Part shown: positions 3,124-20,998 of the stretch, one piece after another
Position numbering within the stretch: position 1 is the first letter of the stretch
Layout of the letters: each line of letters begins with the position of its first letter
The notes under the pieces: model-generated
What the model was told of the DNA's origin: nothing
The model's database searches: none
Seen by the model: the letters and a program-made list of their open reading frames with translations, nothing else
Virus record (IMG/VR): IMGVR_UViG_3300009151_000031
Source: a virus
Direction: 5' to 3' (one strand)
Length of the DNA stretch: 64,000 bases
Translations under genes and position numbers: made by a program

Positions 3124-3568
3124 TAAAATCGTTGCCAATCTTGGAGAAATTCCAAACTTCATTGATTACTATGAAGGCGAACTTATTGCGGCTAAAGCCG
3201 ACATTAAAATTCGAGGCAACGTAGAACGAGCATTAAGTAACTTGCCGGGTGAAACAGAACATCGTTTTAATCAATTGCAAGAAATTGAAGCAGTATTAGA
3301 GTTTCTTAATATACAGTTGCGTAAAATACGTCAGTCACACTATAAAAAATATTTAGAAGCCTATGCTCGTGCATTAACAAGCCGAGATGCAGAAAAGTAT
3401 GCAGAAGCCGAAGACGAAGTTATTGATATGGAAACTATTATCAACGAGGTAGCACTACTCCGTAACAAATGGTTAGGAGTAATGAAAGGCATAGAGAGTA
3501 AGAACTTTATGCTAGGGCACGTTGTTCGATTACGAACGGCGGGTATGGAGGATATTGTTGTATCATGA
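3113..3568 (+). CDS. uvsY: Recombination mediator UvsY-like
   Basis: Helical 151 aa, YLEAYARALTSRDAEKYAE, KNFMLGHVVRLRTAGMED, near uvsX. Confidence 0.75.
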   Translation: MFYNKIVANLGEIPNFIDYYEGELIAAKADIKIRGNVERALSNLPGETEHRFNQLQEIEAVLEFLNIQLRKIRQSHYKKYLEAYARALTSRDAEKYAEAEDEVIDMETIINEVALLRNKWLGVMKGIESKNFMLGHVVRLRTAGMEDIVVS

Positions 3569-3819
3569 TAGACTGGAAAGCACGAGCTGATCAACTATTA
3601 GAAGAGTTTAACATGTGCATTAAGGCTAAACCAATGCACAATGTAGTAGATATACAATTAGAAAAAGATACGGTTGCTAAGTTTGCTTATAATTTAAGTA
3701 CACAACGTGGCTGGGGTTCTGATACGGAGATTGCTGAAGCAATTTATCAACTTGAACCAAGACTTGCAGAACTTAAAAAGAAATTAATTATAGAGATACT
3801 ACAACGTGGGCCTGTTTAA
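3565..3819 (+). CDS. Hypothetical protein
   Basis: ATGA overlap, operon continuity. Confidence 0.65.
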   Translation: MIDWKARADQLLEEFNMCIKAKPMHNVVDIQLEKDTVAKFAYNLSTQRGWGSDTEIAEAIYQLEPRLAELKKKLIIEILQRGPV

Positions 3820-5304: not shown

Positions 5305-6876
5305 ATGCGTAATTTAATCGATATCATCACTGAAGCTACTATTGCAGACTATCCAATGGGTACAACGTACCTAATTAGTGGTAGTAAATCTGGTCGTGCA
5401 TTAGCTGATGCATTATCGCATCAAGGCGTTAACATCGAAGAACCAATGGTTAGTGTTGATCAAAGTGAAGTTAACCCCAAAGAAATTAAAGCCTACGTAG
5501 GCAAAAATGCTCCGGGTGTTGCTAGTCAAGCATTCCGTGACGCCGATAACACATTGTGGGTTTACTATGGCGGTGCAAGCGGTATGAACAGTTGTTTTGT
5601 ACACGCAGATAAACTAGCTAACCGTGGCGAGATTGCAGAAGGCATTCTTGGCGCGGCTATGTTTGCCAAGTTTACTAAACGTGCCCCACAAGAAGAAATA
5701 GCACAAGTTACGGTACAAGATGTAGAACGTGTTCTTGCACAGTTGAGTAATAAAGCCGAAGACGTATACTCCGTTACGGTAAATGATGCCGATAATCGGC
5801 ATGCTGACACTATTACATTTGATCTATTCTTAAAAACAAAACCTTTTCAAGACCTAATGGATTTAAAAAAGCGCGAAGCACTTATGCAAGAGTTTAGTAG
5901 TGCCGCCGCCTATGTAAATACTCCCAATGCAGAACGTTACAGCCGTTACTTTTATATCAACGGTAAAACAGACTCGATCGAAATTATTGCCAATGGAGCA
6001 CTTGCTGAAAAATCAAGCAAGGTTGATGTGTTTGTACAAGTTAACGGTAAGCGTTTACGGTTAAACACTAGTCTTAAAGTTGGCGGCATCAAGCAGTTTG
6101 GTCAAGTTGGCGGCAGCGAAATGGCCAGTATGATTAAACTATGGAACTACTTTGGCGTTGATGTAGCACCAATGACTAAAAAGTTTGAAAAACTACGTAA
6201 CAACGATCAGTTTGACGCATTGGAATATATGTATCGCAACATTGCTGATCAGCTAGGTAAAGAACTACGCGGTAACAATGACAGAACTGAAGCATCGTTT
6301 GTAGTAAAAGTTGCTAATGCCGTTTCGTATTTTGCTACATTAGGCGAAAAGAATGTTGAGCTAGTAGACTTTAGCAAGGGTGGCTTCAAGATTTTACGTT
6401 TTAATGATCTAGTACAAAAGTTACATAATGTTGACTTAACAGCAACTTATAAAGAAGCAAAAGGTCGCCCAGAAATTGGTATCCATGATGTCTCAGATCC
6501 AAAACGAGAACTAGTAAGTATTCGTGTTAAAATTGAAAACAAAAAAGAAGGCCCTTATGTTCGTAACATCATCGAAAAAGGTCCGTTGTTAGAAGAATTA
6601 ACTACAGTACAACAAGGATCGTTGGCACACGGCACCGGATCAAAAATATTAGCACGTACACCTGCTCCGGTTAAAACAGCACCAGCATCCACCTCACCAG
6701 TTGCTAAAGTCAATGCACCAGTACAGCAACCAGTGGCCAAAAAACCAACAGGACCAACTCAAGATTATACCCCACCCGGACATCCAGACTATGTTGAGCC
6801 AGACGATGAGCTCAGATATTCTGAATCGGTAAGACCCAAACGCAGTCTGTCTGAAATACGTCGCCAACGCCGTTGA
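5305..6876 (+). CDS. Late/virion-associated protein with Pro-rich tail
   Basis: ATAAATA at 5294-5300 just upstream; N-terminus MRNLIDIITEA; low-complexity Pro/Ala/Thr C-terminus. Confidence 0.5.
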   Translation: MRNLIDIITEATIADYPMGTTYLISGSKSGRALADALSHQGVNIEEPMVSVDQSEVNPKEIKAYVGKNAPGVASQAFRDADNTLWVYYGGASGMNSCFVHADKLANRGEIAEGILGAAMFAKFTKRAPQEEIAQVTVQDVERVLAQLSNKAEDVYSVTVNDADNRHADTITFDLFLKTKPFQDLMDLKKREALMQEFSSAAAYVNTPNAERYSRYFYINGKTDSIEIIANGALAEKSSKVDVFVQVNGKRLRLNTSLKVGGIKQFGQVGGSEMASMIKLWNYFGVDVAPMTKKFEKLRNNDQFDALEYMYRNIADQLGKELRGNNDRTEASFVVKVANAVSYFATLGEKNVELVDFSKGGFKILRFNDLVQKLHNVDLTATYKEAKGRPEIGIHDVSDPKRELVSIRVKIENKKEGPYVRNIIEKGPLLEELTTVQQGSLAHGTGSKILARTPAPVKTAPASTSPVAKVNAPVQQPVAKKPTGPTQDYTPPGHPDYVEPDDELRYSESVRPKRSLSEIRRQRR

Positions 6877-8521: not shown

Positions 8522-9145
8522 TTGAAGTATCCTGAAAAACAATTCGAGTTGTATGACAAGAATTGTTTTTCTACGACTAGCTGGCAAGAAATATTTTCTG
8601 GACGTAGAGTTCTGATTTGTTCTATTGTGCGTCCTCCTTTGTGTTTTAATCAAAATTATATAATAGATTTACAAATTTACAGAGAAATGTACAAGTTGCT
8701 TGGGGTAGATGAAGTCTACTTACTAAGCCGTTCTCGTCTTGGATTAGTCAGTTTATTAAATCGAACAACAATACCTTGCATGGCAGATGTAAATTCAGAA
8801 TTTGCATTGCATTTGAACAGTCTGGTCAATACAAAAGAATACAGTAAAAATCATTTGTCATCGTTCTGGGCATATCAGGTATTAATCAACGACGGCGAAG
8901 TGGAACAGATCACACAACAACCTCTAGAAAATTATCTGGCCACCATGCTCAAGGATACCAAGAACATTGCCGCACTTAAAGCAATTGGATTAAAAAACGA
9001 AAAGTTAATTTGGACACCGACTTTTTTGACACGAACTATTAAATTGGCCAGAGACATTTTTTACTACCGATTGCACCCAAACATCGAGCTCAAAAAACAT
9101 TTATTCTCAACTTATCCAAACATACTTGACAATAAAGATAAATAA
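8522..9145 (+). CDS. Degenerate Prx5/redoxin-fold protein 1 (TTG start)
   Basis: EIFSGRRVLI, LGVDEVYLLS, MADVNSEF, WAYQVLINDGEVEQ align with Prx5 scaffold. Confidence 0.55.
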   Translation: MKYPEKQFELYDKNCFSTTSWQEIFSGRRVLICSIVRPPLCFNQNYIIDLQIYREMYKLLGVDEVYLLSRSRLGLVSLLNRTTIPCMADVNSEFALHLNSLVNTKEYSKNHLSSFWAYQVLINDGEVEQITQQPLENYLATMLKDTKNIAALKAIGLKNEKLIWTPTFLTRTIKLARDIFYYRLHPNIELKKHLFSTYPNILDNKDK

Positions 9146-9154
9146 ATGTATAAT
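9126..9154 (+). promoter_or_regulatory. sigma70 promoter driving leader/attenuator
   Basis: TTGACA-17 nt-TATAAT, overlapping end of upstream gene. Confidence 0.85.
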
Positions 9155-9164
9155 TGATAACATT

Positions 9165-9293
9165 ATGACACTAAGAACTTGTAAACATCTACCATCCATA
9201 CAGCCAACACTAGGTATGTTAGCCTATTGGCCTGCGAATGAAGTGTTTACATCAATTAATAGTGATCGTGAATACAGAGAGGGTCTCAATTAG
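9165..9293 (+). CDS. Putative 42-aa attenuator leader peptide MTLRTCKHLPSIQPTLGMLAYWPANEVFTSINSDREYREGLN
   Basis: ATG 10 nt after -10 box (near-leaderless), TAG inside antiterminator stem; too short for ORF track. Confidence 0.7.
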   Translation: MTLRTCKHLPSIQPTLGMLAYWPANEVFTSINSDREYREGLN

Positions 9294-9351
9294 AGTATTG
9301 TAGTTTACCATATTTTAATCGAGACCCTGGACTAAACACCCAGGGTTTTTT
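9280..9351 (+). terminator. Mutually exclusive antiterminator (9280-9328) and intrinsic terminator (9323-9351)
   Basis: AGGGTCTC/GAGACCCT closes a ~22-bp hairpin; ACCCTGG/CCAGGGT stem plus U6 uses the same ACCCT. Confidence 0.8.
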
Positions 9352-9370: not shown

Positions 9371-9547
9371 ATGTCGCATAAAATTAATAAAAATGAGTAT
9401 TCGCAATTTATTCTTTCCCGTGAAGAAAAGGTTGCATTAATGGAAGCAAAAATTGCAAGAGCGGAAGCTCAAGTAAAGGCGTTAGCAGAAATTGTAAAAG
9501 TAAAAGCAAAGGAATCTGCAAGGGGGTCGAAATACACCTCACGCTGA
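9371..9547 (+). CDS. Small coiled-coil protein, first gene after attenuator
   Basis: RBS AAGGAGA, ATG 9371, EEKVALMEAKIARAEAQVKALAE heptads. Confidence 0.7.
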   Translation: MSHKINKNEYSQFILSREEKVALMEAKIARAEAQVKALAEIVKVKAKESARGSKYTSR

Positions 9548-9609
9548 TAAATGGATTGAGGTTATGTTAAGTACAGGCACGTTTTTTTCGTGTACTATAT
9601 TTGATAAAC

Positions 9610-9960
9610 CTGAGTAAGTGTGTAAAGAGGAAACGAGGTCCTCGCTGGGCACTATAAACATCTAGCAAACGGGCGGACAGGATACATAAAAGCCGGGCGA
9701 TAACCGGTTAGTAAGACTCCTGGGTAGGGTACTATCCCTATCATATCCTGTAGCAATACAGGGTATTCTAAAGCATATTAGATGAGAGCGTCCAAAGGTC
9801 CTGAACACCTTGTGGGACAGGGCACAGGAATCACCGTGACACTAGTATGTTTTATAATACCCTTTAGAAGAACACGCCCAAGCACCGCACCGATAAAGCG
9901 GACTGCCAGAGCAACCGTCACATAAACGGCCGCTGTTATCCAACACAGCAACTAAAGGGT
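9610..9960 (+). ncRNA. Candidate large multi-branched structured RNA
   Basis: No ORF, GC-richer, nested stems GGGCG/CGCCC, CAGGATA/TATCCTG, GGGTATT/AATACCC and at least six hairpins; boundaries approximate. Confidence 0.6.
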
Positions 9961-9970
9961 AGACTTATAT

Positions 9971-10055
9971 GGAGGAACGGCGCAGATGGCGGGGCGCGGC
10001 AGACTGTAAATCTGTTCTCTAGGGCTAGTTGGTTCGAATCCATCTTCCTCCACCA
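9971..10055 (+). tRNA. trnY: tRNA-Tyr(GTA), atypical C8 and D loop
   Basis: GCAGA-CTGTAAA-TCTGT, long variable arm, CCA. Confidence 0.88.
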
Positions 10056-10136
10056 CAAATCCTGAATTTTAATAAATATATTGAGCAGTATTTCAAATTG
10101 CACATAAATACATAATAAAATCCCAGGAGATTGTTG

Positions 10137-11084
10137 ATGCAAAAAACAAATAAAATTAAGTGGCTAATCGCACACGAGCCGGTACATCTTTTCTTACGTA
10201 CAGCAGAAGCATTTGCCGCTGATGTTAAAGCAAAAACCAACGGTGAGATTGATATTGAAATTTATACAGCAACAGAATATGCCAATAAATTCCACAATGG
10301 TCACAAAGAAAACCCATTGACACATATGGAAAATGGCACGTTAGAGATGAGCCAATTGCATATCAGTCAGTTATGGAAATACAATGCTCCATCATTTATG
10401 GCTCTTGAAATGCCATTCTTGTTTAGCGATCATGACCATGCTACCCGTGTATTGGAAGGCAACATTGGTCAAGACATGCTAGCAAGTTTGAAAGAAAAAT
10501 CACCAGCACGTGGACTAGCGTTCACATACAGCGGCGGCTATCGTGTCATGGTCAGTGATACCGAAGTTAACGAAATAGCTGACTTCCGTAATATGAAGTT
10601 CTATACAGGCACAAACCCAATTGGTATGGATACTATCGAAGTTATCGGTGGCCAACCCGATCCACACGCTATTGACCATTTTTGGCACAGCGTTACTGCT
10701 AATGGTATCAAACACGATGCAATCGATACAACAATTCCACGTGTTTTAGCCACAGTTGACAAACTAAGCAAGCGTTTTATCACTGACACCAAGCACAGCA
10801 TGTTTTTGACAAGCATTATTGTTAGTGAAGCATGGTGGAACACACTAAGCGAAGAGACAAAAGAAATTTTGGCCACTGCCGCAACCGATGCCGCACGTTT
10901 AGAGCGTAAGTGGTCAGTTGAAGACAGCAACCATGTTATTGCCAATGCTGTAGAATTGGGCTTAGAATATAAAGAACTAAGCAAAGAAGATCAATCCAAG
11001 TTCCAGGCACTAACAGAACCATTGTACCAAAAGTATGAATCTATGTTTATGCCAGGTTTAGTTAACGGAATTATCCGCGGTTAA
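10137..11084 (+). CDS. TRAP/DctP-family solute-binding protein paralog 2, no signal peptide
   Basis: HEPVHLFLRTA, ALEMPFLFSDHDHATRVLEG, YSGGYRV, FLTSIIVSEAWWNTLSEE. Confidence 0.8.
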   Translation: MQKTNKIKWLIAHEPVHLFLRTAEAFAADVKAKTNGEIDIEIYTATEYANKFHNGHKENPLTHMENGTLEMSQLHISQLWKYNAPSFMALEMPFLFSDHDHATRVLEGNIGQDMLASLKEKSPARGLAFTYSGGYRVMVSDTEVNEIADFRNMKFYTGTNPIGMDTIEVIGGQPDPHAIDHFWHSVTANGIKHDAIDTTIPRVLATVDKLSKRFITDTKHSMFLTSIIVSEAWWNTLSEETKEILATAATDAARLERKWSVEDSNHVIANAVELGLEYKELSKEDQSKFQALTEPLYQKYESMFMPGLVNGIIRG

Positions 11085-20059: not shown

Positions 20060-20707
20060 ATGAAAGACTTTAGTTTTTCAATTCTTAAAAATAACGAAGT
20101 ACAAAAAATAACATTCCAGGACTTAGCCTTAAACAAGCGAGTCCTGGTTTGCTCTGTTGTCCGTATGCAAACCCATGTTTCGGATTTGTATGTTAAAGAA
20201 TTAATTAAGCAAACTACTAGTTACAAACAACAAGGCATTGACGAAGTTTATCTAATAAACTCATGCCATGGACTATTTGCACTTGCAAGATTTGATAAGA
20301 TATTTCCGGAAATTACAATGTTAGCAGATACTGATAATCAATTTGTAACGTGGATTAGTAGTACGGTAAACAAAGCTACGCAGACTATAGATAATTTATC
20401 AAAGTATTGGAGTTATCAAGTACTACTGAACAATGGCAAAATAGAGCAATTTTACGAACAGCCAACTGAAAATTATATTAGACATTTAATTAAGGCTGGA
20501 CACAAACCAAATTTGGCACACCAAAAGTTTTTTATAACCGAAGGCGACACAGTTGCATTACATCGCCCTGGGTTAAGTAGAGAAGAACAAAATACATTTG
20601 GACATTTGCCATTTGATGGTGCTCGGTGTACTCCGTTGGAGTTTATGTATTTTAATCTTTGTCCAAACACTAAATTAAATCAATATTTGCTTGACACACA
20701 GGTGTAA
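20060..20707 (+). CDS. Degenerate Prx5/redoxin-fold protein 3
   Basis: DLALNKRVLV, QGIDEVYLIN, MLADTDNQF, WSYQVLLNNGKIEQFYEQP. Confidence 0.55.
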   Translation: MKDFSFSILKNNEVQKITFQDLALNKRVLVCSVVRMQTHVSDLYVKELIKQTTSYKQQGIDEVYLINSCHGLFALARFDKIFPEITMLADTDNQFVTWISSTVNKATQTIDNLSKYWSYQVLLNNGKIEQFYEQPTENYIRHLIKAGHKPNLAHQKFFITEGDTVALHRPGLSREEQNTFGHLPFDGARCTPLEFMYFNLCPNTKLNQYLLDTQV

Positions 20708-20719
20708 CTAGTATATAAT
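20691..20719 (+). promoter_or_regulatory. sigma70 promoter for 256-nt RNA and tRNA-Thr
   Basis: TTGACA-17 nt-TATAAT. Confidence 0.85.
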
Positions 20720-20727
20720 TAATACAA

Positions 20728-20983
20728 GTAATAAGTTTGGGTACATGGTGTGGCGACCATCTGATACATGTGGTAGTCTTAGTAATAGTATGTAACACAC
20801 GACCCCGTGGCACTGATACTGCAAAATCGGGTACTCCCGAGGGTACAAGGAATTTTAAAACTATGAACAGGTGCAAGAGTCCATGAAAAAGCCTGTGAAG
20901 GCAAGCTATTTAGCCGAGTCGCTCTTGGTTAGCATTGTGGTCCACTGTCGAAAAGCAGATTTAGGTGTACCCAAACTTATTAC
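20728..20983 (+). ncRNA. Candidate 256-nt structured RNA with paired ends
   Basis: Perfect 18-bp terminal stem GTAATAAGTTTGGGTACA/TGTACCCAAACTTATTAC starting at predicted TSS; internal hairpins. Confidence 0.7.
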
Positions 20984-20998
20984 ATTAAATAGTATTAT

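Follow-up and report, generated by a model that had tools for sequence, protein, structure and literature searches.

An uncatalogued family of pseudoknotted RNAs in uncultured, often very large phages, frequently encoded ahead of tRNA genes

What occupies the stretch of about 350 nt (9610-9960) between a small ORF (9350/9371-9547) and a tRNA-Tyr gene (GTA; 9971-10055) in the viral DNA analysed here, and what might it do for its carrier? The window, by which we mean the whole stretch of 64,000 nt (IMG/VR record IMGVR_UViG_3300009151_000031), appears to come from an uncultured phage of very large size: ARAGORN found 27 tRNA genes between 6.9 and 21 kb, and the replicative helicase region showed only distant similarity to PA5oct-like and other jumbo phages. 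All features of the window described below lie on the plus strand. The initial annotation had proposed a large structured non-coding RNA beside phage tRNA genes and outside the known families, an interpretation that the results presented here support. The stretch is ORF-free and GC-richer, as had been stated: the overlapping ORFs are all spurious (at most 57 aa), and the GC content is 0.46-0.49, compared to 0.33-0.42 in the surroundings. The whole 351 nt folded better than shuffled sequences (z = -3.9). The view of one single RNA of about 350 nt survived in part, in that the RNA is structured but does not form a single domain; it comprises a core of about 244 nt that defines a family and an optional 3′ module.

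Comparison with Rfam 15, whose 4227 models include ROOL, GOLLD, tmRNA, RNase P RNA, T-box, riboswitches and ribozymes, assigned the element to no known family. At gathering thresholds, only tRNAs were reported in the window. At E ≤ 10, positions 9400-10150 gave only tRNA and chance miRNA-like matches, and no family recurred over the element in 12 related loci, so that the database was silent at both settings. A full-text literature search, which included an invariant 12-mer of the RNA, retrieved no relevant paper. The tRNA-Tyr gene reached 44.1 bits with the Rfam tRNA model when its region was searched alone and was missing from the whole-window Rfam list at gathering scores (26 tRNAs, compared to 27 by ARAGORN), an absence that we attribute to the search filter.

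Relatives of the RNA were collected by several routes. Three related phage loci were recovered through a search with the neighbouring DctP-like protein; one of them contains the RNA at 96% identity and another at about 75-80%. An exact 16-mer taken from the conserved junction described below identified 49 viral stretches, about 40 of which were true relatives by blastn, and a less biased pattern, with six junction bases left free, identified 69 viral stretches comprising 67 distinct sequences. The pattern search of metagenomes returned at least 120 stretches, with 101 real ones among the matches listed, and IMG/VR and metagenome contigs together hold at least 130 distinct full-length cores. 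When one genome was taken for each of 185,579 prokaryotic species, ten pattern matches were obtained, nine of them due to chance; the sole real match was a 2-kb contig in a Chlorobiaceae bin (MAG). Among GenBank phage isolates no relative was found by blastn, only tRNA-Tyr or chance matches. One metagenome contig (L113) contains two copies on the same strand, at 3465-3626 and 6066-6225, 2.6 kb apart; tRNAs lie in the interval and behind the second copy, and about 860 nt free of ORFs follow the first.

A covariance model of the core (R1; 162 positions, 36 pairs) detected a single copy in the window, at 9615-9772 (160.7 bits), and 75 matches in viral loci, the window included, with scores of 77-170 bits. 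It also detected 73 further metagenome sequences among the matches listed, none of which had been used in model building. In the viral alignment, 92.1% of the pair cells were standard, compared to 38-42% when partners were slid by 1-3 columns; double-sided changes were present at 31 of the 36 pairs, and none of 500 shuffles reached the observed values. The 73 metagenome sequences outside the model were 94.2% paired, compared to about 40% with slid partners, again with double changes at 31/36 pairs and with none of 500 shuffles attaining these values. Alignments fitted to a model favour its structure somewhat. Chance is untenable as an explanation of the fold, considering how far pairing drops with slid partners and how many pair types occur. 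Both of these independent sequence sets show very strong covariation, and the window presents every element that characterizes R1 members, namely the P1/P3 pseudoknot, the AACGAGG loop, the junction AAACGGGCGGA and P4 to P8. These results show that 9617-9860 belongs to a family of pseudoknotted RNAs that has not been catalogued; its members measure about 185-275 nt and come from uncultured phages, which are often very large. We rate it as a new family among the orphan structured RNAs of phage tRNA regions.

The core (9617-9860) begins with a 5′ pseudoknot, continues with four hairpins and ends with a long terminal helix. In the pseudoknot helix P1, which the initial annotation did not contain, AGUGU (9617-9621) pairs with GCACU (9649-9653), bringing AGUG upstream of P2 together with CACU inside the P3 loop. 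A perfect 4-bp partner was present in 59 of 64 sequences (mean of shuffles 8.6, maximum 16), and compensatory variants include UGUG/CACA, CGUG/CACG and AAUG/CAUU. The P2 hairpin (9627-9643) has a 5-bp stem, 95% paired with double changes at 4/5 pairs, and an invariant 7-nt loop, AACGAGG (9632-9638); mimicry of the sarcin-ricin loop by P2 was rejected, since the flanking bases form a covarying pair. P3 (9644-9648 with 9662-9666; 90-95% paired, double changes at 5/5 pairs) carries in its loop the 3′ strand of P1 and UAUAAACA. The junction AAACGGGCGGA (9667-9677) that follows is invariant and single-stranded, and its GGGCGG was read in 66 of the 67 distinct sequences obtained by the search that left six positions free. 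No conserved complement of the junction or of the P2 loop was found in the flanking transcript.

Comparative pairing also defined the second half of the core. P4 (9678-9682 with 9718-9722) and P5 (9692-9708) together occupy 9678-9722. In P4, CAGGA pairs with UCCUG in 97-99% of cases and covaries to CAGUA/UACUG (GC to UA), and the helix encloses the P5 hairpin plus a conserved internal loop, AUGAA opposite AGUAAGA, which in our reading may form an S-turn-like arrangement. Two types of this internal loop exist and covary as a block. P5, drawn from the start as AGCCGG/CCGGTT, is mis-registered by the covariance model and was scored directly on 125 sequences; all five pairs were present in 101 of them, with 51 distinct stems. 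Its loop is GCGAUAA here and GYGNNAA in the family. P6 (9723-9742; 7 bp), which contains the TAGGG/CCCTA pairing, was 98.6-98.8% paired with double changes at 6/7 pairs, and P7 (9744-9765; 9 bp), in which UAUCCUGUA pairs with UACAGGGUA below a GNRA tetraloop (GCAA), was 96.6-98.5% paired with double changes at 9/9 pairs. The core is closed at its 3′ end by P8 (9766-9781 with 9842-9857, extendable to 9860), which corresponds to the pairing GGGTATT..AAAGCATATTAG/CTAGTATGTTTT..AATACCC. Tested apart from the core model on a MAFFT alignment, P8 was 94.9% paired and showed double changes at 9/13 pairs. It is A/U-rich, lacks a trailing U run and often has a large insert: a variable one of 60 nt here (9782-9841), and one of 3-82 nt in relatives, where the helix measures 14-20 bp. 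The outer part of the helix, AUUCUAAA/UUUAGAAU, is invariant or nearly so. Among unpaired regions, the AACGAGG loop, the junction AAACGGGCGGA, the AUGAA/AGUAAGA loop and the P5 loop GYGNNAA are invariant or nearly so, and 14 bases in single strands stay unchanged among phages that differ freely in the sequences of their helices. A mutual-information scan for tertiary pairs, P5-P6 kissing loops included, revealed nothing beyond the block in the P4 internal loop.

The helices now called P5, P6 and P8 had thus been drawn correctly from the window alone; the observation was confirmed as to the RNA and failed in two pairings of the fold. According to that drawing, GGGCG (9671) and CGCCC (9875) would close an RNA of about 350 nt around two multi-branch domains. 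Both pentamers are present in the window, but CGCCC sits in the optional 3′ extension and is absent or different in sequence in most relatives, although GGGCGG is invariant, and the locus L068 has CACCT in its place without a compensating change. The inner helix CAGGATA/TATCCTG was 65.6% paired, a value that 474 of 500 shuffles reached. The comparative data already contradict such a fold, which we consider next to impossible.

The 3′ extension comprises about 100 nt (9860-9959) and was defined by folding and comparison. Its closing helix P9 (9860-9867 with 9952-9959), formed by CCCUUUAG and CUAAAGGG, is followed by AAGAAC and encloses the three 3′ hairpins that had been noticed early on, at about 9885-9901, 9915-9929 and 9932-9949. 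The extension folded with an MFE z-score of -5.5 relative to shuffles. It is common to loci L001 and L068, and hairpin 3 covaries. Analogous but shorter modules, consisting of a closing helix and then A(U/C/A)GAAC, were found in some loci with a spacer between P8 and the first tRNA, and in many loci the tRNA comes directly after P8 with no extension. Because both begin similarly, the P8 insert and the 3′ extension may be the same kind of optional module.

Upstream of the RNA, transcription probably starts at a promoter with the sequence TTGACA-17-TATAAT (9126-9154), which matches the sigma-70 consensus at 12/12 positions; no comparable promoter was found from there to the RNA. The window has promoter-like sites that match sigma-70 at 11 or 12/12 positions at 6873, 9126, 13524, 16830 and 20691. 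Each of these five near-consensus promoters heads one of the successive tRNA-containing units of the tRNA region, which suggests that the region is transcribed by the host polymerase as several separate units. Behind the 9126 promoter, and outside the RNA itself, lies a leader-like small ORF of about 42 codons from the ATG at 9165 (9165-9293); homologous small ORFs precede the RNA in other loci (clusters 4 and 5). Next comes a terminator-like hairpin and U run, CCCUGGA-loop-CCAGGG-UUUUUU (9325-9351), the single match to this pattern in the window. Such a hairpin occurs upstream of 107 of 117 distinct family members with a conserved sequence (CCCUGGA, a 9-nt loop of the form CUAAANAC, CCAGGG and a U run). 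Its place is always upstream of the RNA, which it either abuts or from which it is separated by a small protein gene; in the 25 members in which it abuts P1 there is no room for a separate promoter.

The small protein gene of the window encodes 58 aa from the ATG at 9371 (9371-9547). In 33 of 67 viral loci a homologous gene immediately precedes the RNA, and in relatives the stop codon falls within a few bases of P1. The members of this protein family have 50-65 aa, the motif H.LS.EQ...LI..K..RA and a predicted long helix rich in K/R; for the protein of the window, AlphaFold predicted a short helix and one long helix (pLDDT 83), and searches for Pfam, PHROG-function and PDB matches gave none. 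The RNA is part of a larger conserved unit made up of promoter, leader ORF, terminator, small protein gene and RNA, and this unit appears to switch phage tRNA genes on. Judging from gene order, many uncultured large phages place the RNA between a putative leader-ORF/terminator element and tRNA genes.

On the downstream side, a tRNA gene on the same strand lies no more than 250 nt past the point where the core model stops (the 5′ strand of P8) in 87 of 118 loci, and the identity of this tRNA varies widely. The tRNA started 0-4 nt past P8 in 13 measured loci, and several apparent spacers between P8 and the tRNA turned out to be tRNA-Ser or tRNA-Tyr genes missed by ARAGORN. In L042, L033, L038, L091, L034, L017 and L008, P8 or the extension is followed by a long-arm tRNA with the anticodon loop CUUGAAA (Ser, UGA); ARAGORN missed these tRNA-Ser genes, and they gave weak tRNA-Sec-like Rfam matches. 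About one fifth of the loci have no tRNA close behind the RNA, and radical-SAM enzymes, HNH endonucleases and a PD-(D/E)XK nuclease were found in loci of this kind. A radical-SAM gene comes next, with no close tRNA, at L053:8110-9309, L009:9471-10901 and L078:2277-3497.

Several known classes of RNA were considered and rejected. ARAGORN reported no tmRNA in the window and the Rfam tmRNA model found none at the locus; a tmRNA would combine a tRNA-like acceptor/T-arm domain with a tag frame behind a pseudoknot, and by inspection the frame in that place is not kept, as the spacing varies by 1-2 nt and a stop codon is often missing from the P5 loop. In bacterial RNase P RNA the long-range P4 helix is built from the conserved regions CR-I and CR-V. 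No RNase P model matched the locus or its 12 relatives at E ≤ 10, and no 3′ strand of the ACAGAA..CGGCUUA type was seen in the alignment. A T-box was rejected on the model searches, and an HDV-like fold on the same searches and on the order of strands, which differs in our reading. Leaders of the nut/rrn type have a conserved single-stranded boxA (about GCUCUUUAACAA) beside a boxB hairpin, an arrangement not found here: the sequence most like a boxA, CACUAUAAACA in the P3 loop, is not constant at the U-run positions and has its CACU paired in the pseudoknot. A riboswitch ending in an intrinsic terminator was rejected on the A/U-rich P8 and on the tRNA that starts within 0-4 nt in many loci, and a terminator scan found none after the RNA element.

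How might this RNA act? Our tentative proposal, which we hold to be possible and put somewhat short of an even chance, is that it is co-transcribed with the tRNAs, released by RNase P as a stable RNA, and active in trans. As suggested by the layout, transcription from the 9126 promoter would read through the 9325-9351 hairpin and include the small protein gene and the tRNAs. Likewise from the layout, RNase P would cut where the next tRNA begins (9971 in the window), and this would set the 3′ end of the RNA and leave it tucked inside a helix, either P8 or P9. The stable RNA, alone or with a protein, might then act in trans on a universally conserved partner. Our leading guess is that this partner would most likely be part of the translation apparatus; it is prompted by the neighbourhood, since RNA and tRNAs would be expressed together. 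For trans rather than cis action we have a hesitant preference, also below an even chance. It derives from two facts: the window has five tRNA-unit promoters against a single copy of the RNA and a single terminator hairpin of this kind, and 14 single-stranded bases are invariant amid freely drifting helices, which would suit a universally conserved partner. Against release and action in trans we count the contig with two copies of the RNA (L113). Moreover, the fifth of loci that have no close tRNA imply that RNase P cannot always set the 3′ end, and the place of the RNA right behind a regulated terminator would suit a cis-acting leader equally well.

Such a leader is the main rival and, although unlikely, deserves serious weight. 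The RNA, perhaps together with the small basic helical protein, would modify RNA polymerase so that neither Rho-dependent nor intrinsic terminators stop it in the long tRNA region, most of which is untranslated, in the manner of HK022 put or the rrn/nut leaders. The RNA is indeed the first element after the regulated terminator and ahead of the tRNA arrays, the gene for a K/R-rich long helix lies directly upstream in 33 of the 67 viral loci, and RNA polymerase or Nus factors, both of which are universal, could be what the invariant bases bind. However, one copy is found despite the five strong promoters that head tRNA-containing units, and no intrinsic terminator was detected on the plus strand from 10055 up to 13524, where the next strong promoter lies. 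The boxA-like CUUUAACAA is not conserved, the P3 loop varying at exactly those positions; put and nut are far smaller and less ornate; and the tight abutment of P8 and tRNA would be left unexplained.

We consider improbable that the RNA is a new self-cleaving or self-processing ribozyme that separates the mRNA of leader and small ORF from the tRNA precursor. HDV-like ribozymes next to phage tRNAs have been published. The pseudoknot is compact and lies exactly where conservation starts on the 5′ side, and the invariant bases of junction and loops are of a kind typical of catalytic cores. Yet no Rfam ribozyme model matched, the strand order is in our reading unlike that of the HDV-like fold, host RNases would suffice for the job, and the sequences point to no cleavage site. 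More improbable still is a riboswitch-like sensor that would provide a second checkpoint on tRNA expression. Invariant junction bases within a multi-helix fold would fit a sensor, as would the competition of P7 and P8 for GGGUA, where by our reading position 9764 covaries with both partners. Against it, the RNA is followed by neither a terminator nor a ribosome-site platform, P8 is A/U-rich and without a trailing U run, no Rfam model matched, and the element also occurs ahead of protein genes with no obvious platform.

A bolder reading is that the RNA is a ribosome-directed effector that docks on small subunits and changes their use during infection, which we regard as a long shot. The invariant ACGGGCGG is the exact complement of the universal 16S rRNA strand CCGCCCGU (1399-1406) in the decoding centre, and the same eight bases begin the universal primer 1392R. 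The invariant P2 loop shows a Shine-Dalgarno-like GAGG. About a dozen conserved single-stranded 8-mers set against 4.5 kb of rRNA should yield roughly one match by chance; only the location of the ACGGGCGG match is striking, and we treat it as a lead rather than a finding.

Among known systems, ROOL (about 580 nt) and GOLLD (about 800 nt), found in phages and prophages, resemble this RNA in being phage-borne, non-coding, encoded near tRNA genes and elaborately folded with covariation. The present family is smaller (about 185-275 nt), gave no Rfam match even at E ≤ 10 and, unlike ROOL and GOLLD, has a 5′ pseudoknot and lies behind a conserved leader ORF and terminator. RNAs C and D of phage T4 (species 1 and 2) are stable RNAs encoded in the tRNA unit and matured by tRNA-processing enzymes. 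They measure about 120-140 nt and are located downstream in the T4 cluster, a comparison of size and position; among the phages that blastn listed for the RNA itself from the GenBank collection, none was of the T4 type. Antitermination leaders (HK022 putL/putR, lambda nut with N, and the boxB-boxA-boxC leaders of rrn operons) likewise place a structured RNA at the head of a long operon, and the small basic protein encoded beside the RNA in half of the viral loci recalls the pairing of lambda nut with N. Compared to these leaders, the RNA has no conserved boxA, is several times larger and is present as a single copy despite the several tRNA units of the window. Hammerhead and HDV-like theta ribozymes also occur at junctions of phage tRNA precursors; here no Rfam ribozyme matched and the strand order of the pseudoknot is unlike HDV-like folds.

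Orphan structured RNAs of such size and covariation are rare, and this family is abundant, with at least 130 distinct sequences. It offers a well-defined new fold of a size that suits in-line probing or crystallography, and the covariance model R1 can be used to catalogue further members. Knowledge of the partner would reveal by what means large phages manage translation or take it over.

The tRNA region of the window contains a second ORF-free stretch of about 270 nt (20722-20998), located between a 12/12 consensus promoter (20691-20719) and a tRNA-Thr gene. It gave no Rfam match, folded with an MFE z-score of -2.6 and is closed by a 19-bp helix (about 20728-20746 with 20965-20983); possibly this is another structured RNA that precedes a tRNA.
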